32,000 nt of DNA, taken from contig LVZN01000017.1 of the NCBI GenBank assembly GCA_001695645.1, positions 7,950 through 39,949 on the forward strand. Direction: 5' to 3'. The stretch is from Erysipelotrichaceae bacterium MTC7 (GTDB lineage: Bacteria > Bacillota_I > Bacilli_A > Erysipelotrichales > Erysipelotrichaceae). The position numbers were made by a program, and so were the translations under genes. Below the pieces are notes generated by a model. The model saw only the letters and a program-made list of their open reading frames with translations. It was not told the DNA's origin and made no database searches. How positions within the stretch are numbered: the stretch's first letter is position 1; each line of letters opens with the position of its first letter. Shown here one piece after another: positions 280-32,000 of this stretch.

Positions 280-495
280 GTGGTTGTGGGAAATTTAGGC
301 GCACAAAAAGCAAAACGAAATGATACACCAATCAGTGCAAAAAAAGATATTATGGGGGATAAGACGGTTCGTGTTCGTGCTGACTTGCACCATATTATAA
401 AAATCGAAACAGCAAAGAATGGCGGAAACGTAAAAGAAGTTATGGATAAAGCCTTAGAAGAATATATTCGGAAATATTTACCTGACAAACTTTAA
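280..495 (+). CDS. omega: Omega transcriptional repressor (ribbon-helix-helix) of the Inc18 omega-epsilon-zeta operon
   Basis: 71 aa with a GTG start. The sequence MVVGNLGAQKAKRNDTPISAKKDIMGDKTVRVRADLHHIIKIETAKNGGNVKEVMD... matches my recollection of pSM19035-type omega. It is followed by epsilon. Confidence 0.9.
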   Translation: MVVGNLGAQKAKRNDTPISAKKDIMGDKTVRVRADLHHIIKIETAKNGGNVKEVMDKALEEYIRKYLPDKL

Positions 496-511
496 AAGGA
501 GTGAAAATGAA

Positions 512-784
512 ATGGCAGTTACTTATGAAAAAACATTTGAAATAGAGATCATTAACGAATTATCGGCAAGCGTTTATAATCGAGTATTAAACTATGTTTT
601 GAATCATGAATTAAATAAAAATGACTCTCAATTATTGGAAGTCAATTTATTAAACCAATTAAAGCTTGCAAAACGTGTAAATCTTTTTGATTATTCTTTA
701 GAAGAATTACAAGCCGTTCATGAGTATTGGCGGTCAATGAATCGCTATTCAAAACAAGTTTTGAATAAAGAGAAAGTGGCTTAA
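512..784 (+). CDS. epsilon: Epsilon antitoxin of the epsilon/zeta toxin-antitoxin system
   Basis: 90 aa, [36 protein letters not shown]... SD GGAG is upstream. The stop overlaps the zeta start (TAATATG). Confidence 0.9.
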
Positions 785-785
785 T

Positions 786-944
786 ATGGCAAATATAGTC
801 AATTTTACTGACAAACAATTTGAAAATCGCTTAAATGATAATTTAGAAGAATTGGTTCAAGGAAAAAAAGCGGTTGAATCGCCAACCGCTTTTTTACTTG
901 GTGGGCAACCAGGGTCAGGGAAAACGAGTTTGCGAAGAAGATGA
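786..944 (+). pseudogene. zeta: Zeta toxin, truncated after about 50 codons
   Basis: Translates to [52 protein letters not shown]. It retains the Walker A motif (GGQPGSGKT), then homology ends and a stop occurs at 942-944. I recall full-length zeta as about 287 aa. Confidence 0.85.
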
Positions 945-995
945 TTGAGCAGGCAGGAACAAAGTGATAAATTCAAATTGTGAGGGAAAATATAG

Positions 996-1415
996 ATGAA
1001 TCAAGGAAGAATTATTGTGATTACAGGCTCACCGGGGACAGGAAAAACAACAACTGCGTCAATTGTCGCAAAGGAATCAGATATGGATAAATCAGTGCAT
1101 ATGCACACCGATGACTTTTTTCATTACTTAAGCAAAGGCGCAATACCACCACATTTGCCAGAATCCAACAAGCAAAATCTGGTTGTCATTGAAGCCTTTT
1201 TAGAGGCTGCAAAGCGATATGCTCGTGGCGGATATGATGTAATTGTAGATGGGATTGTCGGGCCATGGTTTTTGGAGCCATGGAAAGCTCTTGCCCAAGA
1301 AGATTACGAGGTACACTATATTGTATTAAGAGCGAGTATGGAAATAAGACTTAGAAGCAAACTTAAGAGTGTGTTGATAGTGCAGTATCTTAAAATTTTG
1401 TATAATAGGAATTGA
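996..1415 (+). CDS. P-loop NTPase/kinase-like protein; the 3' end appears replaced by the erm(B) upstream region
   Basis: Walker A GSPGTGKTT near the N-terminus. The last ~25 codons (EIRLRSKLKSVLIVQYLKILYNRN) are a translation of the erm(B) promoter region, suggesting a fusion or truncation near 1340. Confidence 0.55.
   Translation: MNQGRIIVITGSPGTGKTTTASIVAKESDMDKSVHMHTDDFFHYLSKGAIPPHLPESNKQNLVVIEAFLEAAKRYARGGYDVIVDGIVGPWFLEPWKALAQEDYEVHYIVLRASMEIRLRSKLKSVLIVQYLKILYNRN
1374..1407 (+). promoter_or_regulatory. Putative erm(B) promoter
   Basis: TTGATA at 1374-1379 and TGTATAATA (extended -10) at 1399-1407. The 21-nt spacer to TTGATA is long, so the extended -10 is the stronger signal. Confidence 0.45.
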
Positions 1416-1461
1416 AGTTAAATTAGATGCTAAAAATTTGTAATTAAGAAGGAGTGATTAC

Positions 1462-2199
1462 ATGAACAAAAATATAAAATATTCTCAAAACTTTTTAACG
1501 AGTGAAAAAGTACTCAACCAAATAATAAAACAATTGAATTTAAAAGAAACCGATACCGTTTACGAAATTGGAACAGGTAAAGGGCATTTAACGACGAAAC
1601 TGGCTAAAATAAGTAAACAGGTAACGTCTATTGAATTAGACAGTCATCTATTCAACTTATCGTCAGAAAAATTAAAACTGAATACTCGTGTCACTTTAAT
1701 TCACCAAGATATTCTACAGTTTCAATTCCCTAACAAACAGAGGTATAAAATTGTTGGGAGTATTCCTTACCATTTAAGCACACAAATTATTAAAAAAGTG
1801 GTTTTTGAAAGCCATGCGTCTGACATCTATCTGATTGTTGAAGAAGGATTCTACAAGCGTACCTTGGATATTCACCGAACACTAGGGTTGCTCTTGCACA
1901 CTCAAGTCTCGATTCAGCAATTGCTTAAGCTGCCAGCGGAATGCTTTCATCCTAAACCAAAAGTAAACAGTGTCTTAATAAAACTTACCCGCCATACCAC
2001 AGATGTTCCAGATAAATATTGGAAGCTATATACGTACTTTGTTTCAAAATGGGTCAATCGAGAATATCGTCAACTGTTTACTAAAAATCAGTTTCATCAA
2101 GCAATGAAACACGCCAAAGTAAACAATTTAAGTACCGTTACTTATGAGCAAGTATTGTCTATTTTTAATAGTTATCTATTATTTAACGGGAGGAAATAA
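1462..2199 (+). CDS. erm(B): Erm(B) 23S rRNA (adenine-N6)-dimethyltransferase (MLSB resistance)
   Basis: 245 aa, [47 protein letters not shown]... with the SAM-binding motif [18 protein letters not shown] lies 8 nt upstream. Confidence 0.97.
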
Positions 2200-2203
2200 T
2201 TCT

Positions 2204-2335
2204 ATGAGTCGCTTTTGTAAATTTGGAAAGTTACACGTTACTAAAGGGAATGTAGATAAATTATTAGGTATACTACTGACAGCTTCCAAGGAGCTAAAGA
2301 GGTCCCTAGCGCCTACGGGGAATTTGTATCGATAA
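2204..2335 (+). CDS. Small hypothetical ORF immediately downstream of erm(B)
   Basis: 43 codons (MSRFCKFGKLHVTKGNVDKLLGILLTASKELKRSLAPTGNLYR) with GGGAGG SD upstream. I recall a small conserved ORF downstream of erm(B). Function unknown. Confidence 0.4.
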   Translation: MSRFCKFGKLHVTKGNVDKLLGILLTASKELKRSLAPTGNLYR

Positions 2336-2374
2336 GGGGTACAAATTCCCACTAAGCGCTCGGGACCCCTTGTA

Positions 2375-2629
2375 GGAAAATGTCCTAAGTGTGGCAACAA
2401 TATTGTATTAAAAAAATCGTTTTATGGTTGTTCAAATTATCCTGAATGTACCTTCACTTTAGCTGAACATTTTAGAAAGAAAAAACTCACCAAAACAAAT
2501 GTAAAAGAATTACTAGAGGGAAAAGAAACCCTGGTAAAAGGAATCAAAACGAAAGATAGAAAGTCCTACAATGCCGTTGTAAAAATCGGAGAAAAGGGAT
2601 ATATTGATTTTATCTCTTTTTCAAAATAA
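2375..2629 (+). pseudogene. C-terminal fragment of an Inc18 type IA topoisomerase (zinc-ribbon end); no start codon
   Basis: An open frame after an in-frame TAG translates to GKCPKCGNNIVLKKSFYGCSNYPECTFTLAEHFRKKKLTKTNVKELLEGKETLVKGIKTKDRKSYNAVVKIGEKGYIDFISFSK*. It has CxxC...CxxxxC zinc-finger spacing and sits just upstream of P-delta, as in Inc18 plasmids. Confidence 0.75.
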
Positions 2630-2633
2630 GCAT

Positions 2634-2657
2634 AAAAGCCCTTTAAAGAGGGCTTTT
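2634..2657 (+). terminator. Rho-independent terminator after the topoisomerase stub
   Basis: AAAAGCCCT-TTAAAG-AGGGCTTTT: a 9-bp stem with a 6-nt loop and a T-rich tail. Confidence 0.6.
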
Positions 2658-2664
2658 ATATATT

Positions 2665-2727
2665 AATCACAAATCACTTATCACAAATCACAAGTGATTA
2701 ATCACAAATCACTTGTGATTTGTGATT
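2665..2727. promoter_or_regulatory. Omega-repressor operator array, P-delta type: 9 contiguous heptads
   Basis: AATCACA AATCACT TATCACA AATCACA AGTGATT AATCACA AATCACT TGTGATT TGTGATT, directly upstream of delta. The last 48 bp are identical to 190-237. Confidence 0.85.
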
Positions 2728-2731
2728 CCTA

Positions 2732-3610
2732 ATGATACAATATTACTATACAAAAAAAGAATGGGGCGTAGTTATGGAGAAGGAAGAACTCAAAATACTT
2801 GAAGAATTAAGACGTATTTTAAACAGTAAAAATGAAGCGATTGTTATCTTAAACAATTATTTTAAAGGTGGTGTTGGAAAGTCAAAATTATCGACTATGT
2901 TTGCTTACTTGACAGACAAATTTAATTTAAAAGTTTTAATGATCGATAAGGACTTACAAGCAACATTGACAAAAGACTTAGCAAAAACATTTAAGGTAGA
3001 ATTGCCACGTGTTAATTTTTATGAAGGACTGAAAAATGGAAACTTGGCTTCTTCTATTGTTCATTTGACTGATAATTTAGACTTGATCCCTGGCACGTTT
3101 GATTTGATGTTACTGCCAAAATTAACTCGCTCATGGACTTTTGAAAATGAAAGTAGATTGCTTGCTACTCTTTTAGCACCTTTAAAAAGTGACTATGATC
3201 TCATTATTATTGATACTGTACCAACGCCAAGCGTTTATACAAATAATGCAATCGTGGCAAGTGATTACGTCATGATCCCTTTACAAGCAGAAGAAGAAAG
3301 TACAAACAACATTCAAAACTATATTTCCTATTTGATTGATTTACAAGAACAGTTTAACCCTGGACTAGATATGATCGGTTTTGTTCCTTATTTAGTTGAT
3401 ACGGACAGCACAACGATAAAATCAAACCTGGAAGAACTGTACAAGCAACATAAAGAAGATAACTTGGTTTTCCAAAATATTATCAAGCGAAGTAATAAAG
3501 TAAGTACCTGGTCTAAAAACGGCATTACAGAACACAAAGGCTATGACAAAAAAGTTTTATCTATGTATGAGAACGTATTTTTTGAAATGCTTGCATATAG
3601 TATGCAGTAA
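2732..3610 (+). CDS. delta: Delta (ParA-family partition ATPase, ORF298-like); native C-terminal 11 aa replaced
   Basis: Deviant Walker A KGGVGKS. The sequence is MIQYYYTKKEWGVVMEKEELKILEEL..., with an alternative start at M15 (2774). It matches delta through ...VFFEML (codon 287, nt 3592), then reads AYSMQ* from unrelated DNA. Confidence 0.85.
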   Translation: MIQYYYTKKEWGVVMEKEELKILEELRRILNSKNEAIVILNNYFKGGVGKSKLSTMFAYLTDKFNLKVLMIDKDLQATLTKDLAKTFKVELPRVNFYEGLKNGNLASSIVHLTDNLDLIPGTFDLMLLPKLTRSWTFENESRLLATLLAPLKSDYDLIIIDTVPTPSVYTNNAIVASDYVMIPLQAEEESTNNIQNYISYLIDLQEQFNPGLDMIGFVPYLVDTDSTTIKSNLEELYKQHKEDNLVFQNIIKRSNKVSTWSKNGITEHKGYDKKVLSMYENVFFEMLAYSMQ

Positions 3611-3693
3611 TAATTCAAAAGCTGTTATCGTGTGCGGTAAATAAAAAAAACCGTTCCTAGATAATACACTTTTGTGCGTCTTGAAAAATAACG

Positions 3694-3729
3694 GGACGGT
3701 TTTGGATATAACCAGAACTGTCCTTTTTT
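3694..3729 (+). terminator. Possible rho-independent terminator
   Basis: GGACGGTT-14 nt-AACTGTCC (8 bp including one G-T pair) followed by TTTTTT. Confidence 0.35.
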
Positions 3730-3820
3730 CTTAGGAGTAAATAAGGCATAGTGGTGTTAGTATATAACTATGGACACGGAAAGTTGAACATCCTATAATA
3801 TAAAAAAGGAGTGTTCTAAA

Positions 3821-4099
3821 ATGGCAAAAAATCAAAAATCCTATACCCCAGAATTCAAGCAGCAAATTGTTGACCTGCATAATAAAGCTGGCAAAGGTAT
3901 AACAGAATTATCTAACGAATATGGCGTTCCAAAAGGCACAATCTCTACCTGGGTAAAGCTTCTTTCACCAGTACAGGTCTCAGAAACAGAAACTATTTCT
4001 ATGAAAGAGTACAAGGCTCTTCAAAAGAAAATGAAGGAACTAGAGACAGAGAATGAAATATTAAAAAAAGCTACCGCCATATTCGCCAAAAATCAATAG
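3821..4099 (+). CDS. IS3-family transposase OrfA (HTH)
   Basis: 92 aa, MAKNQKSYTPEFKQQIVDLHNKAGKGITELSNEYGVPKGTISTWVK... followed by a leucine-zipper-like tail. SD AAGGAG is upstream. Confidence 0.85.
   Translation: MAKNQKSYTPEFKQQIVDLHNKAGKGITELSNEYGVPKGTISTWVKLLSPVQVSETETISMKEYKALQKKMKELETENEILKKATAIFAKNQ
4063..4070 (+). promoter_or_regulatory. Programmed -1 ribosomal frameshift site (A AAA AAA G) joining OrfA to OrfB
   Basis: The A7G run lies in the orfA frame (tta aaa aaa gct). The -1 frame is open from here into orfB (...KKSYRHIRQKSIAAYVSFIQANL...). orfB is in frame -1 relative to orfA. Confidence 0.6.
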
Positions 4100-4107
4100 C
4101 TGCGTAC

Positions 4108-4968
4108 GTGTCCTTTATTCAAGCTAATCTTGATAAATATACTGTTAAACAAATGTGCAAGGTTCTTAAGTTTCCTCGCAGTACTTATTATGCTGTAATT
4201 AATCATGTTACATCTCAAAGAGAAATTGAATACAACAAATTTAGCGAAGAAGTTCAATTTTACTATGATCAATCTAAGGGACGTTATGGTGCTATTAAGA
4301 TACAGCGTGATCTTGAAGAAGCTGGTATCCCCTGTTCAGTCAAAAGAGTTCAAAGACATATGGCTAGGCTTGGTATTCGTAGTGTTGTAGTACGCAAATA
4401 TAAGTATCAAAATAATCAAGGTAAGGTTCCTGACGATAAGGAAAATATACTGAATCGCGATTTTAGTACTACAACCATAAATCAAAAATGGGTTACTGAC
4501 ATAACGTATATACATGTTCTTAACGAGGGCTGGACTTATCTAGCATCAGTTATGGACTTATATGATAGAAAAATCATTGGTTATTCATATGGTAAAAATA
4601 TGACCACCGAATTAGCTATGAAAGCAGTTGAAAATGCATGTATTAATGTAAAAGACACTACAGGTATTATCCTTCACAGCGATTTAGGCAGCCAATATAC
4701 AAGCGCAGTATTTGAGAATATGCTTACAGAAAAACATATGAAGCATTCCTTCAGTAGAAAGGGAAATCCTTACGATAATGCCTGTATAGAATCCTACCAT
4801 TCTGTATTGAAGAAGGAAGAAGTATACCGAAACACATATCATACACTTGAGGAGGCTAAATCAGCTCTCTTTGAATATATAGAGTCTTGGTATAACCGCA
4901 GAAGGAGGCACAGTGCACTGGATTATAAAACTCCACAGCAGGTTGAAGATGAGGCTCTTGTAGCTTAG
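4108..4968 (+). CDS. IS3-family transposase OrfB (DDE catalytic domain), probably made as an OrfAB fusion
   Basis: DDE triad context: WVTDITYI, HSDLGSQYTS, NACIESYHSVLKKE. Confidence 0.85.
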   Translation: MSFIQANLDKYTVKQMCKVLKFPRSTYYAVINHVTSQREIEYNKFSEEVQFYYDQSKGRYGAIKIQRDLEEAGIPCSVKRVQRHMARLGIRSVVVRKYKYQNNQGKVPDDKENILNRDFSTTTINQKWVTDITYIHVLNEGWTYLASVMDLYDRKIIGYSYGKNMTTELAMKAVENACINVKDTTGIILHSDLGSQYTSAVFENMLTEKHMKHSFSRKGNPYDNACIESYHSVLKKEEVYRNTYHTLEEAKSALFEYIESWYNRRRRHSALDYKTPQQVEDEALVA

Positions 4969-5355
4969 TAATCTTTCTCTCCGTATTAATGTCATGCAGA
5001 GAGAAAAAGTTCAACTTTTTGTGTCCAAAGTATTGACATAGGTCCATAGCTCTGGTTAAAGGGGGCTATACCATGATTGCATACGGAAGAACGTTCTGCC
5101 GTTCTCAACTGAATAAATATTTCAGTCCACTATTACAATCATTACACCCTTTACAAGAATTAAAAATTCATATCAATAGAATTTATAAAACAGTCTGTTT
5201 GTGTAATTACACATTATCGGGCTGTTTTTGTTTTGTTAAAAATTTTTTTCAACTTTTTTCGGTTTCAACTTAGCAAATCACACCTGTCGTTCCCTATATG
5301 GTGCGGAAAGAGGGATAACCACTTTTCATATCGTAACGGAAAGGGGGTGAGATTG

Positions 5356-5772
5356 ATGAAACCATCTGACTTCCAGAAAACAGTTCAATGCCGTTTTGAA
5401 AGTTGTTTGAAGAAAGTTGTCCGACATGTTGTTAAGGACTATCAGAAGAAATTAAAGCGACGACAAAAGGGAGAAACGCTTTTTTGTGAACTTCCAGAAA
5501 TCGTTGTAGAAAATCTGGCTGTCTGGGACGACTATGATACGGACTATACGATTTTCAATGTATGTGGTAGTGATATTCGTATTTGTGATGATGAACTGGC
5601 AGAAGCCTTGAAACATTTGTCTGAGCGTAATCGAGAAAATTTGTTGATGTATTATTTCTTGGAAATGAGCGATACCGAGATTGCAAAAAGACAAAATATT
5701 TCAAGAAGTGGTGTTTTTCAAAACCGACACAATTCACTAGAGCTTATGAAAAAAATACTAAAGGAGAAATGA
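5356..5772 (+). CDS. Sigma-70-family (region 4) protein, Tn916 Orf7-like
   Basis: ATG at 5356 follows an AAAGGGGGTGAG SD. The tail LLMYYFLEMSDTEIAKRQNISRSGVFQNRHNSLELMKK is a sigma region-4 HTH. The longer track ORF from 5233 lacks an SD. Confidence 0.7.
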   Translation: MKPSDFQKTVQCRFESCLKKVVRHVVKDYQKKLKRRQKGETLFCELPEIVVENLAVWDDYDTDYTIFNVCGSDIRICDDELAEALKHLSERNRENLLMYYFLEMSDTEIAKRQNISRSGVFQNRHNSLELMKKILKEK

Positions 5773-5778
5773 TAGCAA

Positions 5779-6027
5779 ATGAAACACACAATGAAGAAGC
5801 CGTCCTACTACTTGCTTTCGCAGGCAATGGACGGGGACGAAAAAGCGATTGAAAAGATACTGGCATTTTATGACCCTTACATATCAAAGTGCTGTCTACG
5901 ACCACTCTATGATGAATACGGCAATGTCTATATTGTTGTAGATATGGAATTAAAGGGACTTATCAGAGAAGCACTTATTAAAATGATTTTAGGGTTTGAT
6001 ATTGCCTTAGAAATCGAAGAAGAATAA
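5779..6027 (+). CDS. Small helix-turn-helix protein, Tn916 Orf8-like
   Basis: 82 aa directly after the sigma gene, with SD AAGGAG in the sigma 3' end. The segment YDEYGNVYIVVDMELK resembles Orf8-type proteins as I recall them. Confidence 0.55.
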   Translation: MKHTMKKPSYYLLSQAMDGDEKAIEKILAFYDPYISKCCLRPLYDEYGNVYIVVDMELKGLIREALIKMILGFDIALEIEEE

Positions 6028-6478
6028 CAAGCAGTAACCGCAGAGCATGATTTGTTCAATCCCCTCTTTCCTGCTCTGCCCCTGCTTTTATATGAAAGCA
6101 ACACGCTTTCGCCACAGCTCTTTGACAACTGAATAAAGCAGACAGATACGTTTGTGAGATAGCGAGCCACGGGAACTGTACGCCACGACCTTTTCAAAAG
6201 AAAGCGAGCGACCCACGCAGTGATCCGAGAGCGACTGTTGGAAAAGTCGTTTTGCCATGACCTATCCTCACAGAATAATGATACGTCCGCATGGTGCGGT
6301 TCTGCCCACAAGAATGGGAATAGTTGAGATACTAACGGAGCTTTCCAAAGCCGTCTGCCTGCTTATAATTGATAGTTTCAGCAACAAAATCTATCTACTC
6401 TTTTTATTTAGGTGTGTTATAATGACCTTATTAGACGAGTGTATTTTGTTGCTGTCACAAATGAAAGGGGTCTTAATA

Positions 6479-6679
6479 GTGATAAGTGATACACAAAATG
6501 CACAATCTCCTACAAAGGAAAAAAAGACTTATACAGTAGAGGAAATTGCTGAACAACTGGACATTAGCAAAAAGGTAGCTTATTCATTAGTAAAAAGCGG
6601 TCAATTCAGTTATGTTCGTGCTGGTAAAGCCATACGGGTATCAAAGGTTTCTTTCGATAAATGGTTAAATGAAATTTAA
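6479..6679 (+). CDS. xis: Excisionase (Xis, MerR-like HTH)
   Basis: GTG at 6479 lies 8 nt after an AAAGGGG SD; an alternative ATG is at 6461. The segment YTVEEIAEQLDISKKVAYSLVKSGQFSYVRAGKAIRVSKVSFDKWL is a typical excisionase HTH. It sits immediately upstream of int. Confidence 0.7.
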   Translation: MISDTQNAQSPTKEKKTYTVEEIAEQLDISKKVAYSLVKSGQFSYVRAGKAIRVSKVSFDKWLNEI

Positions 6680-6697
6680 CTATAAGGAGAGAAAATT

Positions 6698-8143
6698 ATG
6701 GCTTCAATCAAACAAAGAAAATCAAGTTTTTCAGTTATTTATTGGTACTTAGATAGTGCAGGAGAAAGAAAACAAAAATGGGACACGCTGGAAACAAGAA
6801 AAGAAGCAAAACAGCGAAAAGCCTTTATAGAATACTATCAAGAGAAATTTGGATATGTGATAGTTCCATTAGAGGAACAATTTGCACATCAGATTGAAAA
6901 TTCTAAAAAGGAGTTAGATGTTGTAGACAAAGATATTACATTGCGTGATTTCCTAGAAATTTTTGTTAATTTATATGGCACATCTAAATGGTCGCCGAGT
7001 ACATTTAGTAGTAAGGTAGGCAGTATTGAAAATTATATCAATCCGATTATTGGAGATTGGAAACTGAATGAAATAACTACAAAAAGTCTATCAAAATACT
7101 ACAATGATTTATTGAGCGTTCCAGAAGTACCACGGGCAAACAGAAAAGCAACTGGTCGTTGTGTTCAACCAGCGAACATCAAAAAAATACATGATATTAT
7201 CCGCTGTGCCTTAAATCAAGCTATCCGCTGGGAGTATATTGATACAAACAAAAGAAACCCTGCGTCTTTGGCTACGTTACCAAAAATTCCAAAGACTAGG
7301 CGAAAAGTGTGGAGTGTTCAAACATTTCGAGAAGCGGTAAAAGCCACGGAAGATGATTTGCTTTCAATTTGTATGCACTTAGCTTTTTCCTGCTCTATGC
7401 GAATTGGAGAAATTACAGGACTTACATGGGAAGATGTTATTATTGATGAAGAGTCCATTGCTACAAATAATGCAAAGGTAATCATCAATAAAGAACTTTC
7501 AAGAGTAAATGCAGAAGCTATGCAGAAATTAAAGGAAAAGGATATTTTAAAGATTTTCCCAACGCAAAAACCGCATTGTACCACAAGGCTTGTCTTGAAA
7601 ACGCCAAAAACAGAAACAAGTAATCGTGTTGTCTGGTTACCTAAAACAGTTGCGGAACTATTGGTGCAATATAAAAAAGACCAGCAGGAATTAAAGGAAT
7701 TTTTAGGAAGTGCCTACAATGATTACAACCTTGTTATTGCGTTGGATAATGGCAATCCCGTGGAAAGCCGTATTGTTAGAGATAGGTTTCAAAAGCTCTG
7801 TGAAGAAAACGATTATGAAGTTGTGGTATTTCACAGCCTACGCCATTTAAGTACGGGTTATAAACTCAAAATGACAAACGGAGATGTTAAGTCCGTACAA
7901 GGCGATACTGGTCACGCAGAAGCAGAAATGGTTACAGATGTATATTCAGAAATCATTGACGAGGACAGACGTTTCAATGCACAAAAAATGGATAAAGAAT
8001 TTTATTCTACGCTTAATGATGATACAGACAATCCAAAGCAAGATACCGACTTAACCGATAGTGATATGGCGTTATTGGAACTGATTAAATCTTTATCGCC
8101 AGAAATGAAAGAGCAATTTTTAAAGCAGGCACTTCAAAGATAG
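6698..8143 (+). CDS. int: Tyrosine recombinase/integrase (481 aa) with an acidic C-terminal extension
   Basis: Catalytic-domain motifs: MRIGEITGLTWEDV (Arg), HSLRHLSTGY (H-x-x-R), GHAEAEMVTDVYSEI (His...Tyr). SD AAGGAGAG is upstream. Confidence 0.9.
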   Translation: MASIKQRKSSFSVIYWYLDSAGERKQKWDTLETRKEAKQRKAFIEYYQEKFGYVIVPLEEQFAHQIENSKKELDVVDKDITLRDFLEIFVNLYGTSKWSPSTFSSKVGSIENYINPIIGDWKLNEITTKSLSKYYNDLLSVPEVPRANRKATGRCVQPANIKKIHDIIRCALNQAIRWEYIDTNKRNPASLATLPKIPKTRRKVWSVQTFREAVKATEDDLLSICMHLAFSCSMRIGEITGLTWEDVIIDEESIATNNAKVIINKELSRVNAEAMQKLKEKDILKIFPTQKPHCTTRLVLKTPKTETSNRVVWLPKTVAELLVQYKKDQQELKEFLGSAYNDYNLVIALDNGNPVESRIVRDRFQKLCEENDYEVVVFHSLRHLSTGYKLKMTNGDVKSVQGDTGHAEAEMVTDVYSEIIDEDRRFNAQKMDKEFYSTLNDDTDNPKQDTDLTDSDMALLELIKSLSPEMKEQFLKQALQR

Positions 8144-8149
8144 AATTTC

Positions 8150-8213
8150 AAAAGTGTTAGCAAATTCCAAAAAAACCAGCGATTTTTCTTCAAAAATAAA
8201 AAAGTGTTAGCAA
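8150..8213 (+). repeat. Two direct copies of AAAAGTGTTAGCAA spaced exactly 50 bp apart; candidate integrase arm-type sites
   Basis: Identical 14-mers at 8150-8163 and 8200-8213, between the int stop and the presumed element end. Confidence 0.35.
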
Positions 8214-8300
8214 GCCTATTTCCTTAAAAGTCTTAAAAAAATATCGAATAAAAAATGACAGATTGAAAACAATTCGTATTCAGCGTAAATAGAAAGCCAT

Positions 8301-8344
8301 AAATAAAGAAACGCTGAAAACCTTGTAAAATAAGGCTTTCAGCG
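8301..8344 (-). terminator. Rho-independent terminator downstream of tRNA-Arg
   Basis: On the minus strand: CGCTGAAAGCC-loop-GGTTTTCAGCG (11 bp, one G-T pair) followed by TTTCTTTATTT. Confidence 0.6.
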
Positions 8345-8351
8345 GAGTTTG

Positions 8352-8428
8352 TGGCGTCCCAGACAGGAGTCGAACCTGCGACGTTTCGCTTAGGAGGCGA
8401 ACCCTCTATCCTGCTGAGGTACTGGGAC
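8352..8428 (-). tRNA. tRNA-Arg (anticodon CCU)
   Basis: A hand-folded cloverleaf from GTCCCAGTACCTCAGCAGGATAGAGGGTTCGCCTCCTAAGCGAAACGTCGCAGGTTCGACTCCTGTCTGGGACGCCA. It has a 7-bp acceptor stem, anticodon loop CTCCTAA, T-loop TTCGACT and an encoded CCA. Confidence 0.85.
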
Positions 8429-8482
8429 ATTCTTAAAAATCTATTCAATTTTATCTAGTTATCATATCAAAAGGCGTTTGTT

Positions 8483-9895: not shown

Positions 9896-12800
9896 TTATG
9901 CTTTATCTTTTTCATCTTTTCTACGCTTGATTAAAATGATAATGAATCCACTTCCAAGCAGTCCAAACATAAAGTAAATCACACCAGACAATTGTCCGTT
10001 TTGCATAATTGCGCCAAACGCTGCTTTTTGTCCCGTATTACTTCCTTTTACTTTACCCTTATCTTTGCCTGCACTAGCACTTTGACTGTCTGTTTGACTT
10101 TCGTTTTTACCTTCAGTCACCATAGAAATATCTTTTCCATTTGTGTCATCGTCATCTATATCAATGGAAGGTAGAACTTGACTTCCTTGTTTATCTTCCT
10201 CTTTTTCTACTTTTGTTTCATTAGACTTTCCAGGTTGCTCAGGAATCGTTGGCTCTGATGGTTCAGGTTTCACTTCTGGTTTTTCAGGCGTTTCTGGTTC
10301 TGTTGGTTTTTCGTCTTTGATTTCCAACGTTGCCAATGCTTCATCCAGTTTTTCTGATAACGCTTGTAGTTGTGCTGCTTCTACATCAGCTGACTGTTCT
10401 GGTGTTGCCAAGAATGCTTCCGCATCACTAACCACAGACATCAGTCTTGCCACGCTTGCTTCCGTATATGCCCCAAAGTTTGTTGCTTTGATTCCTTCTA
10501 CTTTTGCACTTAAGTATGAACGATCTACTTTTAAGCGTAGTTGCGCGATTGCTTTTGCAAGTTTATTTACTTGTGTACTGATTTGCTCTGCTGTTGCATC
10601 TTCATCTTCATACACTTCTTTTGCTTCTGCTAATGCTTCTAATAATGCACCGTAGCTTTCTTTTGTATATCGGTCTGCATTTGCATCTTTTGCCTCTGCT
10701 AGTGAAATCATGTATGCAAGTGCATCCTTACTTGGTTTTAATACCAATTGTACAAGTGTACTTTCCAACTGTTCATACGCTTCTTCAACCTCGTATGTAA
10801 GTGCTCCACCTTCAATACTCAATACTGCTTTTGCATTTTCTAGTGCAGCCATAAAGTTTTCTTTTGCTTCATTGTTCATGTAGTCATCTAAATTCACTGC
10901 AAGACATTCATCATAAAGTGCTTGTAACTTTGTCGTATCTGCTTTGATGTAATCAAGTAGTTCAAGTGCTTCTGTCAATCTAATAATTGAAAGACTCATT
11001 GCTTCACTTGTTGCATTTGCATCTTCATACAAGTCAATTGCTTCTTCTAGTGCAGCATAGTATTCTGCTTTTGCACCATCAATTAGCTTATCTACATTTC
11101 CGTTATCTACTTCAACTTGTGCGAGGTCGATGAAGATTTTCAGAATTTGTTTTTCCATAGATTCTGGTACCACTTGTTCCAATCCTTTATAAGCTTCATC
11201 TAATGAAGCGTATGCTTGATCAATTGCTTCTTGCGTTGGTGCATCACCACTTACGACTGCTTTTGCTGTCTCCAATGCTTCTTGAAGTGCAGTCCAGCTT
11301 TCTGGTGTATATGCTTCTTCGTCTAATGTTTCAACTGTCTCAATTAACGTGTTAAGTTCACTCATATCTACAGCAGGTTCTGCTACATCATAAACAACAG
11401 TAATCATCGTATCGGCACTTCGATCTTCCGCTACAAGGTAAGCTCTTTGCACGTGTTCGTATATTGGGAGTATCGTAGTTGCAGCATTGTTGCTTGTAAT
11501 ATCTAGTTCAGGGTAATTTGAATCCTCTAAACGAACAACATATGTCTTTGTTTGTTCATCATACGATTCAAAACCATTAAAAGATTCTATAGGCGTACCA
11601 TTTAAGGTAACTTCCTCGATATTGATTGAACCGTTTGCTTCAGGAACATTAACTGATTCATATACCTCAATTTCGGTTAATCCGATACATTTACCAACTG
11701 TTGGTGATTTCAGCCAAACCCTTAAACTTTGTGTTTCTATGGCATGAATAAAGCCATATGGTGTATCACCTGCAAGATAAGACACTTGGGTAATATGCGA
11801 TGATTCAATTTCTTTCCATGTATTATCTTTTGTATCTAAATATTCAAAACGAACATTATCGTCTCCAGGCACGACACTAAACGCATTGTCTGTAAAGTGC
11901 CATAGTTTTACATTTTGCATTTTATGTGGCTCTGACCAATCTAATTGCACATAAGTATCAACAGTAGGGTTTTCATTCCGAAGTCCCCAGTTTGTCCACC
12001 TTGCACTTTCTCTAACACTTTCTGTTTTTACACCATCATTTAGTTCTAGTAATGAGTCATTGATAGCTGTTGTACTTGGATCACTGACAACTCCATTTCG
12101 TAATGTCCCATTTTTAAATACAGGAGCACCTACAAAGTTCTTACTTGCAATATTTTTAGCATCCGCTAATTTATCAAGTACTCTAAGGCTCAAATTTGCT
12201 GTGTACACTTCATTTAAGACACTCAGAGAACCAACGATGTTTTTCATTCCCTTTGTTGCATAATCATCACTGCTGAGTTCCCAAGAAACTGGAAAATACT
12301 CACTAAATGTCCCATCAGCGTAAAATCCACGTAATGTCTGTGGTAGTTTTGGCATAACTTCCGCCGTTGTCATTGTTGCATAGTTTTCGAAAGCTACAAT
12401 ATCACCAATAACATGTATTTTCATTGTTACAGGAATGCTTTTTCCATCAATTGTACCTTCTACATCAAATACTTGAATTTCACTAACATCTTCTTCACTA
12501 ACTGCATTCCATGTAATAGATAAGTCAACCTTGCTTCCATCGCTGTTAGTACCTGTTACCGAACTTGGTAAGGCTGGTATCGTTCCTTGTGCCACGTAAA
12601 CATCTTTTGACATCGTGTAGTAGCTTAAGTATGCATCATCACTTGATGTATCTTTACCTGTTTGCACCGTTACACTTGTACTTTCTAGTCCATCGCTAGT
12701 GGCTTTTAGTGTGAATGATCCTTCCTCTTTTGTAGATTGCACAATAACCAGTGCTTTTCCACTAAACGCTTTGCGAGATGAACCCTTGTACGATTCAATG

Positions 12801-27656: not shown

Positions 27657-27693
27657 ACATATTTCCTCCTCTGTTTCTTGAACGTAGTTGAAA

Positions 27694-27744
27694 ACAAAAA
27701 AAGACTGACAAAAACACATAGTTACATGTGATTTCGTCAGTCTT
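27694..27744 (-). terminator. Leader terminator of the glycosidase operon, overlapping the RAT
   Basis: Minus strand AAGACTGAC...GTCAGTCTT (9-bp outer stem with an inner CACAT/ATGTG stem) followed by TTTTTTTG. The 5' arm is part of the RAT-like element. Confidence 0.7.
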
Positions 27745-27774
27745 GCCTTTTCGTTACAATCCAACCTTATCGAT
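27730..27774 (-). promoter_or_regulatory. RAT-like (ribonucleic antiterminator) element, short variant
   Basis: Minus strand ATCGATAAGGTTGGATTGTAACGAAAAGGCAAGACTGACGAAATC. Compare the SacY/LicT RAT consensus as I recall it, GG(A/T)TTGT(T/G)ACTG-N5-6-CAGGCAA(G/A)ACCTAAA. Confidence 0.65.
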
Positions 27775-27789
27775 TCAATTTACAATTTC

Positions 27790-27817
27790 ATAGTACCATA
27801 TCAAAGTGTCATGTCAA
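27790..27817 (-). promoter_or_regulatory. Putative sigmaA promoter of the glycosidase operon
   Basis: Minus strand TTGACA-16 nt-TACTAT, about 16 nt upstream of the conserved leader block. Confidence 0.5.
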
Positions 27818-27840: not shown

Positions 27841-29295
27841 TTAATAATTTTGCTCTTCATCTTTTTTGCTCAAAAAATGCTTTAATTCAGTTTCAACAAA
27901 ATCTAATATTGATTCCACTTGTGGTCCATACACAATTTGTATTTCACTACCAAAAAGCATATATTCTACTGCACCAGTAGTTTTGATTAATTCAAAGTTG
28001 AATAAGTTAGGATCTCTCAAATGAAAACGAATACGTGTAATACAACATTCAACAAATTGAATATTATCCACTCCGCCGACTCCCCGAATCAGAGTATTTC
28101 CAATACGTTCAATTTCTTCTTTTGTCAACAGGTCTCCAGAGGCAAGTATTCCACTAGTACTTTCTCTTCCCATCGTTGGTAAGTTCATTTTACGTATAAC
28201 ATAAACAAATAATATGTAATATATCGCACCGACAAAGATACCAAATACAATTAGCATAATCGGATCCTTTGAGAACGGCATGTTGTAACTTAAGACATAA
28301 TCAATGAATCCCGCACTAAAACTAAACCCAGCAATCCATTGAAACGAGGCAACAATGAATACACAAATTCCAGTCAATATTGCATGAAGAACATACAACT
28401 GCGGAGCAATAAACATAAAAGAGAACTCTAACGGCTCCGTTACCCCAGTAAAAAAGGAAGCAAATGCTGCAGAAAGTAAGAATGATTTTACACGATTCTT
28501 ATTTTGTGGATATGCCGTATGCAACATCGCAAGTGCCGCTGCCGGCAAACCAAACATCATAACAGGGAAAAAACCAGCTTGGTACATGCCAGTAATACCA
28601 TATGTACCCTTGCTTGCCCAGAAATTACCAATATCATTTATACCAATCACATCAAACCAAAAAACTGAATTCAACGGATGATGCATACCAACCGGAACTA
28701 ACAATCGATTGCAAAGAGCATAAATTCCTGCACCAAGTGGTCCCAAGGAACTAACCATTTCGCCAAACCCGATAAGTGTGTTATACAGGAAAGGCCATAT
28801 CCACAGTAAGATAAATGAGGTAAACATGGATATTACCAACAACCCAAACAACAAAACTATTGTTCGATTTAATCTACTTAACTTTGTCGTATAAAGAAAG
28901 TTGTAGGTAGTTGCTGCTAAAATTCCCGCAAGTATACCGATAAACTGATTGTCAATATTACGAAAAGAATCTTGCGCATCAAGTATAGGTGCTGCATAGT
29001 CACTTATATACATTGGATTTAAGATGTTTGTTATTATCAAAAAAAACATCAATCCATAAAGTGCAGTAAATCCTTGCTTACCCGTACTCATTCCCCAAGC
29101 AACTCCAATCGAAAATGCCATCGGCATATAGTTTAAAATCGTTGTTCCCGATGTTTGCAAAATAATTGCTAAGAAATGAACCCACTCAACTTCAATTCCT
29201 TCTATTGCATAACCTACTCCAGTCAATATAGCTGCAATTGGAAATATTGCAATCGGTAATAAGAGAGATTTCCCGATTCTTTGAAAGTAACTCAT
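27841..29295 (-). CDS. PTS EIICB permease, glucose/N-acetylglucosamine family (no EIIA domain)
   Basis: EIIC motifs: NRLLVPVGMHHPLN, MFGLPAAALAM, FFTGVTEPLEFSFMFIAP. The EIIB motif ECCITRIRFHLRD carries the phospho-cysteine. The start overlaps the antiterminator stop (ATGA). Confidence 0.85.
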   Translation of the reverse strand: MSYFQRIGKSLLLPIAIFPIAAILTGVGYAIEGIEVEWVHFLAIILQTSGTTILNYMPMAFSIGVAWGMSTGKQGFTALYGLMFFLIITNILNPMYISDYAAPILDAQDSFRNIDNQFIGILAGILAATTYNFLYTTKLSRLNRTIVLLFGLLVISMFTSFILLWIWPFLYNTLIGFGEMVSSLGPLGAGIYALCNRLLVPVGMHHPLNSVFWFDVIGINDIGNFWASKGTYGITGMYQAGFFPVMMFGLPAAALAMLHTAYPQNKNRVKSFLLSAAFASFFTGVTEPLEFSFMFIAPQLYVLHAILTGICVFIVASFQWIAGFSFSAGFIDYVLSYNMPFSKDPIMLIVFGIFVGAIYYILFVYVIRKMNLPTMGRESTSGILASGDLLTKEEIERIGNTLIRGVGGVDNIQFVECCITRIRFHLRDPNLFNFELIKTTGAVEYMLFGSEIQIVYGPQVESILDFVETELKHFLSKKDEEQNY

Positions 29296-30119
29296 TCGCT
29301 TATAATCTTGCTAATATGTATCATGAGATAAACTTTTTCATCTTTTTTTAATACATAGCGATAGTTCATTTTTACAATTTCTGTAATATTCTCCATACAT
29401 CTCTCCATTCGATTATTACCATCAAGCAAATAGGTATACATAGCATCTAAATCTAGTGGGTTTTTATTCTCGTTTGTAAAAATATGTTGTGCTAAGAACT
29501 TCAAATGTGTTTGTAAGCGTGATGTATTCAACGATTCATTATCAAAAGACACGTCAAACACATTTTCAATAATAGTTTGAATATCTTTTACGAAATGTAA
29601 AATTCGTTTAGCATTTCTTGATTGGTTACCAACTGTTGCATTTACAATGTGCATCGCAATGTAACTCGCTTCGTGAATTGAAAACTTTATTTTTGTATTT
29701 GCTTCTATAAGTTTCAGTGCCCATAAGCCAATCTTGTATTCGTCCTTATACAATGACTTTATCTCATTATGCATTAAGTTTGCAATCTCTACATTTCTTT
29801 TTTTTCTACTAGCAGCATACCAAAGGTGATCGGTAAGCGAAATTAGTATTTGGTTGCTTAATTCAATTTTCAGATCCTTTTTCGCTTTGCTTGCGATTGC
29901 TTCAGCAATTTGAAAATAGAGAATTGGTGTTCTACTTAACAACTCATGAAATTGCGTCTTCTGCCGATCTTCTAAGCTATATTGTTTCGCAATCAATGTT
30001 TGATTTACTTCATCATTCGCCTTCATTTTAAAGCCGATACCGTTCCCAGTAAGGATAAATTCTTTATTCCCATCGGTCGCAGCGACAACATTATTGTTAT
30101 ACACACGCACTATTTTCAT
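29292..30119 (-). CDS. BglG/LicT/SacY/GlcT-family PRD transcriptional antiterminator
   Basis: 275 aa. The N-terminal CAT RNA-binding domain is MKIVRVYNNNVVAATDGNKEFILTGNGIGFKMKANDEV, followed by a helical body of the length expected for PRD1 and PRD2. SD AGGAGGG is upstream. Confidence 0.9.
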   Translation of the reverse strand: MKIVRVYNNNVVAATDGNKEFILTGNGIGFKMKANDEVNQTLIAKQYSLEDRQKTQFHELLSRTPILYFQIAEAIASKAKKDLKIELSNQILISLTDHLWYAASRKKRNVEIANLMHNEIKSLYKDEYKIGLWALKLIEANTKIKFSIHEASYIAMHIVNATVGNQSRNAKRILHFVKDIQTIIENVFDVSFDNESLNTSRLQTHLKFLAQHIFTNENKNPLDLDAMYTYLLDGNNRMERCMENITEIVKMNYRYVLKKDEKVYLMIHISKIISE

Positions 30120-30131
30120 GTTCCCTCCTAA

Positions 30132-31403
30132 CTACAGTATCAATAAATCCTTTTGATCCAATAAAGCGTTCTCAATTAAAATATGCAATTCATCTGCTTC
30201 AGGTGTATCTATTGCAACTGTTTTATTAATTTTCTTAATTGCAAGTTTATCAGAATGAAATGTATCTGGTATATTAATATACATTTCTTCCACAACATTT
30301 ACAAAAATTTCATCATTATTTTTTTCAATTGATTCCACATTTTCATATCCACCTATCATCTCCATGACCATTTCAATTTCAGTTTTAGAGAATTTCGGTT
30401 TTGTTTCCTCTTCTAAGAAGTTTACCACTTTTTTTGAAAACAGCAAATATGTAAAAACGATTGTGTAGACGATGAAGCAAGTAAAAATAACGACTTCAAG
30501 TTCTACCTGATAATAAAAATGTAAGCTAAAAAAACTTGCATATATAAAAACATGGGCGAAAAAATATTTGGGATTCATTGCAAATAAAATAAACCCAAAT
30601 AGTAAGGTTGTGCCAGTAATAATTGATGATAAAATAAACAAGGTAAACAACACAAGATAAGACTTTTTATTCTGCTCATTGAAAGATAAAAATATTATCA
30701 ACAAAACTAATGGCATAACAACTCGAAAAATCTGCAACTCAAAACTATTCATGATACTCGTATTGTGAAGAACAGGTAAAAAAGAAATGCCAACCAATGA
30801 GCCTAGCAATTGTATGACTTTATAAAAAAAATAGCCAAGTCCATGTAGTGCATCTTTAAGTAAAGTAATTCGGATAATTCCCTTATAAAAAACTGGCCAA
30901 ATAATTACAATCAAAATCGAGATAGGTATCATAAAGAACCCTGTTAGGATTGGCACAAGACGTTTGCCTGAAAAGAAAGCAAATCCTGATGGTAAAGTAA
31001 TCCCTGAAAATCGATTGTTAATCTTGGCTGCAAATAGTCCACATAAAATACCAATAAATGGTGTATTAATATTATTTAAAGAAGTAAATTCAGAACCCAA
31101 GACTCCATCTAAAGCCACGTTCAACAATTCAATAGAAGCTATATTTGTCAATACAATAAATGCTATAATTCCACTAAGCACAGCAGTTGCATCTTTTTTA
31201 TTTGAAAAAAAATAAGCAAAACATGCTGCCAACAATAAAGGGTAATAGTTTAAATATGCGGGTAATAGGCTTGAAAAAAATGTACCAAAACTTGTGTGAA
31301 ACAGTTGATTGATCACATCGCCAAACCAATGTAGTATAATGAGAACAGGTATTAATAATGATGAAAACACTAAACTGCTCGTATATCTTTTAAAGATATT
31401 CAT
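30132..31403 (-). CDS. Degenerate PTS EIICB-like membrane protein (EIIC core motifs and EIIB cysteine lost)
   Basis: The N-terminal half aligns to glucose-family EIIC (NTPFIGILCGLFAAKINNRFSGITLPSGFAFFSGKRLVPI). GITEPxEF is replaced by ITGTTLLFGF, and the HH and GLPAAA motifs are absent. The C-terminal EIIB-like fold MIGGYENVESIEKNNDEIFVNV has no Cys where CITRxR is expected. Confidence 0.7.
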   Translation of the reverse strand: MNIFKRYTSSLVFSSLLIPVLIILHWFGDVINQLFHTSFGTFFSSLLPAYLNYYPLLLAACFAYFFSNKKDATAVLSGIIAFIVLTNIASIELLNVALDGVLGSEFTSLNNINTPFIGILCGLFAAKINNRFSGITLPSGFAFFSGKRLVPILTGFFMIPISILIVIIWPVFYKGIIRITLLKDALHGLGYFFYKVIQLLGSLVGISFLPVLHNTSIMNSFELQIFRVVMPLVLLIIFLSFNEQNKKSYLVLFTLFILSSIITGTTLLFGFILFAMNPKYFFAHVFIYASFFSLHFYYQVELEVVIFTCFIVYTIVFTYLLFSKKVVNFLEEETKPKFSKTEIEMVMEMIGGYENVESIEKNNDEIFVNVVEEMYINIPDTFHSDKLAIKKINKTVAIDTPEADELHILIENALLDQKDLLIL

Positions 31404-31480
31404 TTATGAATTCCCCCATTTCTTTACAACTACAGTATAACAAGTACACATGAAAAAGAAAGAACTCGTTTCGAATATAT

Positions 31481-31509
31481 TTGACTTTTCATGGTTTTAT
31501 ATTTATCAT
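31481..31509 (+). promoter_or_regulatory. Putative sigmaA promoter driving the plus-strand RAT leader
   Basis: TTGACT-17 nt-TATCAT, 15 nt upstream of the conserved leader block. Confidence 0.5.
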
Positions 31510-31523
31510 TTATCTATAAGTTC

Positions 31524-31573
31524 ATCGATAAGGTTGGATTGTAACTACGAAAGTAAGCAAGACTAACGAAATC
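31524..31573 (+). promoter_or_regulatory. RAT-like element, full-length variant, on the plus strand
   Basis: ATCGATAAGGTTGGATTGTAACTACGAAAGTAAGCAAGACTAACGAAATC. It shares a 22-nt block and a 17-nt block (1 mismatch) with the leader at 27730-27774, and it has the apical TAC-GAAA-GTA hairpin that the other copy lacks. Confidence 0.65.
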
Positions 31574-31606
31574 TCTCTCAAAGGGTTTTCTTGTCTTGTT
31601 TTTTTA
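31558..31606 (+). terminator. Terminator-like hairpin overlapping the plus-strand RAT
   Basis: CAAGAC (inside the RAT) pairs with GTCTTG, with inner GAAA/TTTC pairing, followed by TTTTTTT. It is weaker than the leader terminator at 27694-27744. Confidence 0.45.
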
Positions 31607-31718
31607 TTGGCTTTTGTAGTACTTGTTTCCATAATGTATTTACTGTGTTACATAATGACAGGCAAAACAACATTGTAAATATACGATTCTCCAAACAAAC
31701 AAGTACGACAAAAGCCAA
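31607..31718. repeat. 22-bp inverted repeat (1 mismatch) enclosing 68 nt in gene-less DNA
   Basis: TTGGCTTTTGTAGTACTTGTTT (31607-31628) pairs with AAACAAGTACGACAAAAGCCAA (31697-31718). A second hairpin, GCCAACAAT...ATCGTTGGC (31714-31761), competes for the GCCAA segment. Confidence 0.5.
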
Positions 31719-31771
31719 CAATCATTAACAGGTACGAATCTCAAATAACGTAATCGTTGGCTTACCTGCAA

Positions 31772-31814
31772 AAAGTGCACTCAGTTGTTTGAATCCAACA
31801 TTCGAGTGCACTTT
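31772..31814. terminator. Bidirectional rho-independent terminator
   Basis: AAAGTGCACTC-21 nt-GAGTGCACTTT (11-bp stem), flanked by an A-run on the left and T-rich sequence on the right. It lies 22 nt beyond the stop of the convergent gene at 31836. Confidence 0.6.
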
Positions 31815-31835
31815 ATTTCGTTACTATTTTGTCTT

Positions 31836-32000
31836 TTATTTATTTTGGATATAAGCATCCATAGCTGCTGCTGCTTCTTTTCCAGCTCCCATGGCTAGAA
31901 TAACTGTCGCTGCTCCAGTGACCGCATCTCCTCCTGCAAACACACCTTCGCGTGTTGTTGCTCCTGTTTTTGGATCTGCAATTAGACATCCCCATTTGTT
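31836..32000 (-). CDS. C-terminal 54 codons of an FAD/NAD(P)-dependent oxidoreductase (glutamate synthase small-subunit / GltD-like family); the gene continues past the window end
   Basis: Reverse translation gives NKWGCLIADPKTGATTREGVFAGGDAVTGAATVILAMGAGKEAAAAMDAYIQNK*. The GVFAGGD...AxGxGKxAA segment is the typical C-terminal FAD-binding signature of this family. Confidence 0.55.
   Translation of the reverse strand, partial: NKWGCLIADPKTGATTREGVFAGGDAVTGAATVILAMGAGKEAAAAMDAYIQNK

Follow-up and report, generated by a model that had tools for sequence, protein, structure and literature searches.

A conserved structured RNA behind an orphan RAT-terminator in Erysipelotrichaceae, a candidate for an antiterminator-gated non-coding RNA gene

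Ribonucleic antiterminator (RAT) sites and the proteins that bind them are textbook devices, assumed to turn on downstream genes for sugar utilisation. The established model of antitermination by BglG, SacY and LicT is the base of the gating that we propose below; it was reviewed in 2025 in an account of RNA-binding antiterminators that mentions no RAT-gated small RNA (PMC12591593). RNA immunoprecipitation sequencing in Enterococcus faecalis detected no small non-coding RNA bound by the antiterminator NagY (PMC12502629), and our literature searches found no RAT-gated small RNA. Small RNAs have been described in settings nearby. RsaK and RsaOU of Staphylococcus aureus are RAT leaders of glcA and ptsG whose transcription ends prematurely (PMC2790875, PMC2965222), EutX of E. 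faecalis and Rli55 of Listeria monocytogenes are small RNAs that are gated by a riboswitch and sequester EutV, an ANTAR antiterminator (PMC5821096, PMC8934654), and GlmY and GlmZ are enterobacterial small RNAs of amino-sugar homeostasis (PMC2377431, PMC3045617). Here we analyse a stretch of 32,000 nucleotides from Erysipelotrichaceae bacterium MTC7 (contig LVZN01000017.1, positions 7,950 to 39,949), called the window throughout. On its plus strand, at 31481-31814, an orphan RAT with its own promoter and an overlapping terminator faces structured, gene-less DNA, close to a gene for a LicT/BglG-type antiterminator. From sequence comparison, we give a probability of about 0.6 to the reading that this unit is a gene in its own right, encoding a structured non-coding RNA that would be made to full length only under the control of the adjacent antiterminator.

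The unit begins with a sigma-70-type promoter (TTGACT-17-TATCAT, 31481-31509, plus strand) that agrees with the consensus at 10 of 12 positions and predicts a transcription start near 31516. About 15 nt behind it lies a RAT hairpin of the BglG/SacY/LicT type (31527-31575, plus strand), recognised by folding, alignment and a covariance model. Its core, GGAUUGUNAC...GCAAGACU, is of the kind found in imperfect hairpins of about 30 nt that overlap an intrinsic terminator, and it shows the conserved RAT core GGAUUGUNACU...(G)GCAA(A/G)AC(U/C) together with a full apical stem, CUAC-GAAA-GUA. Folded in isolation, the RAT forms the expected imperfect hairpin at -9.3 kcal/mol. The overlapping intrinsic terminator, T1 (31555-31606, plus strand), is followed by a run of seven T and is more stable, at -14.8 kcal/mol (z-score -4.3). 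Because the 5' arm of T1 is the 3' half of the RAT (common bases 31555-31575), the two folds are mutually exclusive. An alignment of nine RATs supports the hairpin with 16 pairs, 94% paired, four of which changed on both sides; the apical stem shows compensatory changes.

The covariance model finds exactly two RATs in the window, neither of them before the genes of the phosphotransferase system (PTS) and the antiterminator. The second lies on the minus strand, in a leader with a promoter, a RAT of truncated apex, a terminator and a Shine-Dalgarno sequence (27690-27817; -29.1 kcal/mol), and precedes an operon headed by a GH84 glycosidase, so that read-through leads into coding genes. The two leaders are paralogous, sharing ATCGATAAGGTTGGATTGTAAC and GCAAGACT(A/G)ACGAAATC. 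The apical CTAC-GAAA-GTA stem is present in the orphan copy only, and it is this full stem, found in the RATs of all relatives as well, that makes the orphan copy the better match to the RAT consensus. The orphan RAT scores 73.2 bits and the GH84 RAT 61.2 bits, a comparison biased by a model trained mostly on orphan-type RATs. No conserved catabolite-responsive (cre) site was seen at the orphan promoter. A candidate 'anti-RAT' interaction, in which the 5' half of the RAT would pair with the loop of the second terminator (31530-48 with 31784-802), was rejected, as its duplex energies did not exceed those of shuffled sequences in any lineage.

Behind T1 follow some 200 strongly structured bases that contain no gene and end at a bidirectional intrinsic terminator, T2 (31772-31814; -18.2 kcal/mol, z-score -4.6), which is predicted to end the plus-strand RNA as well as the minus-strand transcript of a convergent gene (stop 31836). 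We call the structured part the RNA body. It is closed by a long helix, P1, with its 5' arm at 31604-31628 (core GTAGTACTTGTTT, common to the Breznakia lineages described below) and its 3' arm, AAACAAGTACGACAAAAGCCAACAA, at 31697-31721. In the window these are arms of 25 nt, 92% complementary and 68 nt apart, in a segment that folds at -33.7 kcal/mol (z-score -5.6). Inside P1 is a hairpin, P3 (31635-31683), with a 19-nt loop (31650-31668) that holds the heptamer GACAGGC (31657-31663). A further hairpin (31712-31763), in which 31712-22 pairs with 31753-63, reuses GCCAAC of the P1 3' arm; it is weak (-9.8 kcal/mol, z-score -2.4), was not seen in relatives by inspection and is of doubtful significance. 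The 310-nt transcript region as a whole folds at a z-score of -5.8 relative to shuffles, and its elements recur in other genomes; the orphan unit is therefore more than a chance arrangement.

A sequence-only reading of the window had already drawn much of this picture, and the promoter, the paralogous leader with the more canonical RAT, the overlapping hairpin with its T7 run, the bidirectional terminator and the lack of a RAT in front of the PTS/antiterminator genes were all recovered here. Its 22-bp inverted repeat around 68 nt exists with that spacing, though with longer arms than it had stated. The competing hairpin that reuses GCCAA exists only in the weak form described above. That reading had left three explanations side by side: an antiterminator-controlled non-coding RNA, a decoy RAT and the relic leader of a deleted gene. 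Comparison with relatives supports the first of these well, as a syntenic unit with covarying P1 and P3, a conserved loop and a terminator occurs in five lineages.

To obtain these relatives, loci were fetched for homologs of the antiterminator, which has many, from 71% down to 54% identity. Four Breznakia-type lineages carry the RNA unit beside the same cluster of genes for an EIIC-like protein, the antiterminator and an EIICB transporter, with antiterminators 65-69% identical to that of the window. They are Breznakia sp. PF5-3 (L001-L003), Breznakia pachnodae and close variants (L005, L006, L018), and two metagenomic lineages (L007/L008 and L017). On the strand divergent from the cluster their layout is a PTS EIIA gene, a promoter, the RAT, an overlapping terminator, 350-450 nt without a gene, a hairpin and then the next promoter. 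The promoters (TTGACA/TAAAAT in L001, L005, L007 and L017) stand at the same distance from the RAT as in the window, with a TG upstream of the -10 box in L005 and L007. Between the body and the next gene, this hairpin is followed by a clear run of T in L005 and L007, whereas the run in L001 is weak. The operon behind it encodes a PP-loop ATPase (ATP_bind_3), NagB and a HAD hydrolase, and has a fresh promoter of its own.

In all relatives the EIIA gene lies upstream of the RAT, between it and the cluster. It is absent from the window; the window locus has therefore been rearranged. The unit is found once per locus and always at the syntenic position. Its conservation between such distant genomes is notable because the neighbouring EIIC-like protein of the window is only 35% identical to that of Breznakia, a distance at which intergenic DNA should not align. 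Indeed, the intergenic DNA is otherwise unalignable, and only collinear islands are conserved: (A/T)TTG(G/T)CTnTTGTAGTACTTGTTTC, AATGACAGGCA and AAACAAGTAC. They correspond to both P1 arms and the P3 loop.

The P1 helix has been maintained by compensatory change. Whole-RNA alignment with MAFFT misaligned the shortened window copy, so the arms were extracted by anchoring on the invariant core instead. Across six distinct sequences from five lineages, P1 has 27 pairs, 92% paired, and seven of these changed on both sides; the length of this closing helix is 25-27 bp throughout. None of 500 shuffles reached any of the observed measures, and sliding the partner arm by one to three columns reduced pairing to 36-53%. 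Read on the RAT strand, the wobbles amount to nine G-U against one C-A, which points to an RNA made from that strand and not to a DNA palindrome. In the window copy, pairing has been kept by double substitutions found only there.

P3 folds independently in all five lineages, with a different stem in each (GUGUU/AACAU, GCUCAU/AUGAGC, UUAUUGUU/AGCAAUAG, GGUUGU/ACAAUU and UUAU/AUAA). Its loop measures 13-19 nt and always ends in (A/U)GACAGGC. In an antiterminator neighbour-joining tree, the window groups with the lineage of the MTC7-like genome L004 and L016, sister to the Breznakia clade. The RNA body is thus present on either side of the clade's deepest split and is therefore ancestral.

Not every related locus has the body. 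In L004 and in L016, an unclassified Breznakia genome, the RAT-terminator is conserved behind the EIIA stop codon and only a second terminator follows, 20-60 nt further on; here, the body has been lost and the orphan RAT retained. These RAT-terminators (L004 1340-1500 and L016 1-245, both minus strand) start a few bases past the EIIA stop and have no promoter of their own. The RAT sits at the 3' end of an mRNA with nothing behind it to switch on. More distant loci, with antiterminators 55-57% identical to that of the window, contain no RNA body. There the RAT serves as a conventional leader for large genes of the glycosidase type, which encode a GH20 protein of 1720 aa in L013 (RAT at 8409-8457, minus strand) and a protein of 1315 aa in L014 (RAT at 4055-4102, minus strand). 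A scan of a genome collection with a RAT pattern returned only Breznakia sp. PF5-3; the pattern was so strict that it passed over B. pachnodae, in which the RAT has TAGCG. The same kind of scan in metagenomes gave three matches, all of them chance occurrences in coding sequence of an unrelated organism.

We found no coding capacity in the unit. As the sequence-only reading had noted, none of the open reading frames (ORFs) that lie between T1 and T2 in the window is preceded by a Shine-Dalgarno sequence, and the longest of them that starts with ATG has 14 codons; no ORF or Shine-Dalgarno sequence is conserved on either strand in the window and its relatives. A small peptide starting at the ATG inside AATGACAGG was considered and rejected: the ORFs have 6-17 codons, lack a Shine-Dalgarno sequence and are unrelated past 'MTG', and L017 reads AAGACAGG at the motif, with AAG in place of ATG. 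Likeness between predicted peptides is confined to places where P1 nucleotides are conserved, and appears there in several frames and on both strands. The synteny comparison that had been suggested for 31607-31770 revealed no protein-coding gene at the equivalent position, and none of the fetched relatives has one between the RAT and the next terminator.

Nor does the unit belong to a known RNA family. With Rfam 15, a tRNA was the sole match at gathering level in the window. Searches by E-value in the window and the L005 regions returned generic hairpin noise far below threshold; plant miRNA precursors, for instance, scored no more than 24 bits where the cut-offs are 79-180. No riboswitch reached its curated threshold, and the sole riboswitch model with an E-value up to 10 was preQ1-II, which scored 21 bits in L005 and has a gathering score of 47. 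BLAST searches of plasmid and phage collections gave no match to the unit, and a scan of viral contigs with the RAT pattern was likewise empty. The covariance model detected no second RAT in the RNA body of the window or of the relatives. With its own promoter, its own intrinsic terminator, no coding capacity, and sequence and structure conserved with covariation across five lineages, the unit has the features of an independent small-RNA gene.

These elements suggest a mechanism. The strong promoter would fire constitutively. Without inducer, the nascent RNA would form T1 and end as a RAT-containing stub of about 90 nt. When a NagE-like EIICB imports an amino sugar, probably N-acetylglucosamine, the antiterminator would become active and clamp the RAT hairpin. 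T1 would then be blocked and the polymerase could reach T2, so that the RNA would measure about 300 nt, or 350-550 nt in Breznakia. Its body would be closed by P1, with 25-27 bp, and would display P3 with the GACAGGC loop. Since selection has kept P1, P3 and a 7-nt sequence in the loop, we take the body as the presumed effector, inferring its function from conservation. It may act in trans through the P3 loop, by pairing with mRNAs or by binding a protein, and so extend the antiterminator regulon at the post-transcriptional level. P1 could be a stabilising clamp, a site for processing by RNase III, or both; in E. faecalis, NagY and RNase III act together at the nagY leader (PMC12502629).

A bolder version of this proposal makes the RNA the effector arm of a circuit that senses sugar through the PTS, and the first class of non-coding RNA made on demand through a PRD-antiterminator/RAT gate. 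Its GACAGGC loop would regulate other genes in trans, for example those of amino-sugar synthesis or catabolism or of competing sugar systems, or else titrate a protein, with P1 as an RNase III or stability module. We advance this version tentatively and think it rather less probable than the gene assignment itself.

Several observations weigh against a gated RNA gene. The unit is known from only five independent lineages of one narrow Erysipelotrichaceae clade. The lineage of L004 and L016 retains the RAT-terminator without the body, which must therefore be dispensable there. No convincing 3' terminator was found in L017, and in some lineages transcription could therefore run on into the next operon. 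The alignment of the P1 arms was anchored by hand on the invariant core. Comparison of the window with strains L019-L021 gave 0 mismatches in 432, where 1-3 are expected at a background of 0.2-0.7%, too small a difference to bear on conservation. The window copy is the shortest of all, as its P1 encloses 68 nt and that of the others 166-310 nt, and it has neither the P2 hairpin (CCGCAA loop) nor the GAAAACG element of the Breznakia versions, a reduction that could be decay. Finally, about 200 kb of related loci contained no conserved target complementary to the P3 loop.

The best surviving alternative is a decoy, an option that the sequence-only reading had named. Here the RAT itself would be the working part: strongly transcribed, it would bind away active antiterminator and so set the induction threshold of the glycosidase operon, with the downstream RNA as a passenger or stabilising tail. 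The near-consensus promoter would suit such a role, as would the full apical stem and higher score of the orphan RAT, bearing in mind the bias of the model. The L004 and L016 loci, with nothing but a second terminator behind their RAT, also fit, and in 19.5 kb of Breznakia L001 the orphan RAT is the sole RAT. Yet a pure decoy has no need of a body, and both P1 and P3 have been kept by compensatory changes. The 7-nt loop motif is invariant among lineages whose antiterminators are just 65-69% identical, and the model sees no additional RAT in the body. The terminated stub would moreover hide the 3' half of its RAT in T1, which makes it a poor decoy. On balance, we consider titration an unlikely explanation.

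Slightly less probable still is that the RNA is a long cis-acting leader of the nagB-containing operon, and that in the window a rearrangement took this operon away and left the leader stranded. The next genes on the same strand are those for ATP_bind_3, NagB and the HAD hydrolase in all Breznakia loci, as would suit a regulon for amino sugars. L001 and L017 have 3' terminators that are weak or unclear, and the window copy is shortened. Against this, L005 and L007 have good intrinsic terminators past the body, and the next gene there starts from a TGnTATAAT promoter of its own. The window copy faces a convergent gene beyond a strong bidirectional terminator, yet it retains P1, P3 and the motif, and its P1 pairing was maintained by substitutions of its own. 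When the neighbourhood changes, the RNA stays with the antiterminator cluster and not with nagB.

Two further explanations are highly improbable. The first concerns the DNA itself, with the 25-bp inverted repeat as the ends of a miniature mobile element or as paired operator sites for a DNA-binding regulator. The repeats are indeed long and nearly perfect, and a partial copy, AACAAGTAC, stands in the divergent promoter region at 31439-31447. Conversely, the element is single-copy and syntenic at every locus, the wobbles in P1 are strand-asymmetric as RNA predicts, the interior P3 hairpin covaries too, and the plasmid, phage and viral-contig searches were empty. The second, a neutrally decaying leader of a deleted protein-coding gene, could appeal to the missing downstream ORF and to the rearrangement that removed EIIA, but it is contradicted by relatives that have no gene at that position and carry EIIA on the other side of the RAT, and by a gene-less stretch that is conserved and covarying in five lineages, with the window helices kept by compensatory changes.

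As a separate observation, AACAAGTAC is the core of the P1 3' arm, and its extra copy lies between the promoter of the RNA and the EIIC-like gene. Breznakia has a similar sequence, AAGTACAAG, between the -10 box and the RAT. The additional copy in the window may be due to chance.

The orphan unit adjoins a cluster of minus-strand genes in the order EIIC-like protein, antiterminator and EIICB, followed by the RAT-controlled operon of large secreted GH84, GH20 and GH2 glycosidases. The antiterminator (29292-30119) has a CAT RNA-binding domain (CAT_RBD) and two PRD domains and is the presumed binder of the RAT. It matches the structures of LicT, BglG, GlcT and SacY, and its best NCBIfam model is LicT, below the equivalog cut-off. 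The EIICB (27841-29295), the presumed sensor and transporter partner, is NagE-like and related to N-acetylglucosamine-specific transporters, scoring 468 bits with TIGR01998, under the cut-off of 553. The EIIC-like gene (30132-31403), divergent from the RNA promoter, encodes a membrane protein of 423 aa with a degenerate EIIC of the NagE type and a C-terminal stretch in which Pfam finds no EIIB. This protein is clade-restricted: among 5.8 billion proteins it has one relative, at 35% identity, in Breznakia (Erysipelotrichaceae). The three-gene cluster recurs in all of the related loci, and EIIC-like genes of similar size always precede the antiterminator in those fetched. We presume that the protein could be a non-transporting sensor, as SacX is for SacY in Bacillus subtilis. 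Because the PTS/antiterminator genes adjoin the operon of GH84, GH20 and GH2 glycosidases, the whole looks like a regulon for foraging on amino sugars and glycans, and the antiterminator probably responds to N-acetylglucosamine.

Elsewhere in the window, the 3' parts of the minus-strand GH2 and GH84 genes (10227-11371 and 21256-about 22400) share some 1.1 kb that is 96-98% identical and encodes C-terminal modules of the FIVAR/anchor type. Such near-identity points to recent gene conversion, or to an exchange of modules, between these secreted glycosidases. The convergent gene beyond T2 (31836-32000, minus strand, running off the window) differs by about 5% between the window and the same-species strains L019-L021, and the sequence to the left of T2 differs by 0-0.7%, which suggests a recombination boundary at the bidirectional terminator. 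At the other end, an integrative element (1-8430) adjoins a tRNA gene (8355-8428, minus strand). It encodes a small AAA-type kinase (996-1415), a ParA-like ATPase, an IS3-type transposase (4108-4968), a sigma-70 region-4 protein, an excisionase-like helix-turn-helix protein and a tyrosine integrase (6698-8143), as well as an Erm-type rRNA adenine dimethylase (1462-2199; RrnaAD, E-value 1.9e-82) that would be likely to confer macrolide resistance. An ATCACAA-rich repeat of 82 nt occurs twice, at 190-271 and 2680-2761, before two of the gene blocks of this element.

If our reading of the orphan unit is correct, a conserved RAT switch for a structured non-coding RNA would be a new output for the RAT family. 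The availability of a sugar sensed by the PTS would pass through a protein-RNA gate into RNA-based regulation, in parallel to EutX and Rli55 but with a gate operated by protein. For annotation, this means that 'orphan' RATs from genome scans should not be dismissed as relics. The RNA family is defined and testable, and its carriers include at least one named species whose genome is deposited, Breznakia pachnodae. The practical impact is limited for now, as the family is known only from a narrow group of Erysipelotrichaceae near Breznakia.

Among the systems introduced above, GlmY and GlmZ offer a functional analogy only, as small RNAs tied to amino-sugar metabolism. They have no likeness to the orphan unit in sequence or structure, and their control lies with sigma-54/QseF and RapZ whereas that of the orphan unit would be RAT antitermination; a link of the orphan RNA to glmS or nag genes is, by this analogy, speculation. 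RsaK and RsaOU resemble the predicted stub of about 90 nt, being small stable RNAs made from a promoter-proximal RAT-terminator when the antiterminator is inactive. They differ in that they precede protein-coding PTS genes and are by-products of attenuation, whereas the covarying part of the orphan unit lies past the terminator.

Closest in logic are EutX and Rli55. There, too, a conditional terminator near the 5' end chooses between a short and a long non-coding RNA, the RNA is part of an antiterminator circuit, and it adjoins the catabolic genes that are regulated. Their gate is a B12 riboswitch and their antiterminator of the ANTAR type, whereas the orphan unit has a RAT, predicted to be bound by protein, and a CAT-PRD antiterminator. 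The body of EutX and Rli55 carries ANTAR sites; the body of the orphan unit has no second antiterminator site detectable with the RAT model, and sequestration of the antiterminator by the body is for that reason not supported.

The gate itself is most like the RAT-terminator attenuators of the BglG/SacY/LicT systems, such as sacB, sacPA, bglPH and licS of B. subtilis and bgl of Escherichia coli. In these, as in the orphan unit, the RAT hairpin overlaps a terminator, and as in the window, a CAT-PRD-PRD antiterminator and a PTS enzyme II (EII) partner are encoded nearby. NagY-NagE and hylA of E. faecalis provide the amino-sugar example: the second RAT of the window precedes an operon of secreted glycosidases, just as NagY controls hylA and glycosyl hydrolases (PMC9981650, PMC12502629). 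Unlike nagY, bglG and sacX-sacY, the antiterminator operon of the window has no RAT of its own. The orphan RAT also differs in having no protein-coding gene downstream, since only a convergent gene lies beyond T2. In every feature that sequence can test but one, control of a coding gene, the orphan gate is thus a RAT-terminator of the BglG/SacY type, and its predicted output is not an mRNA but a conserved structured RNA with its own 3' terminator.

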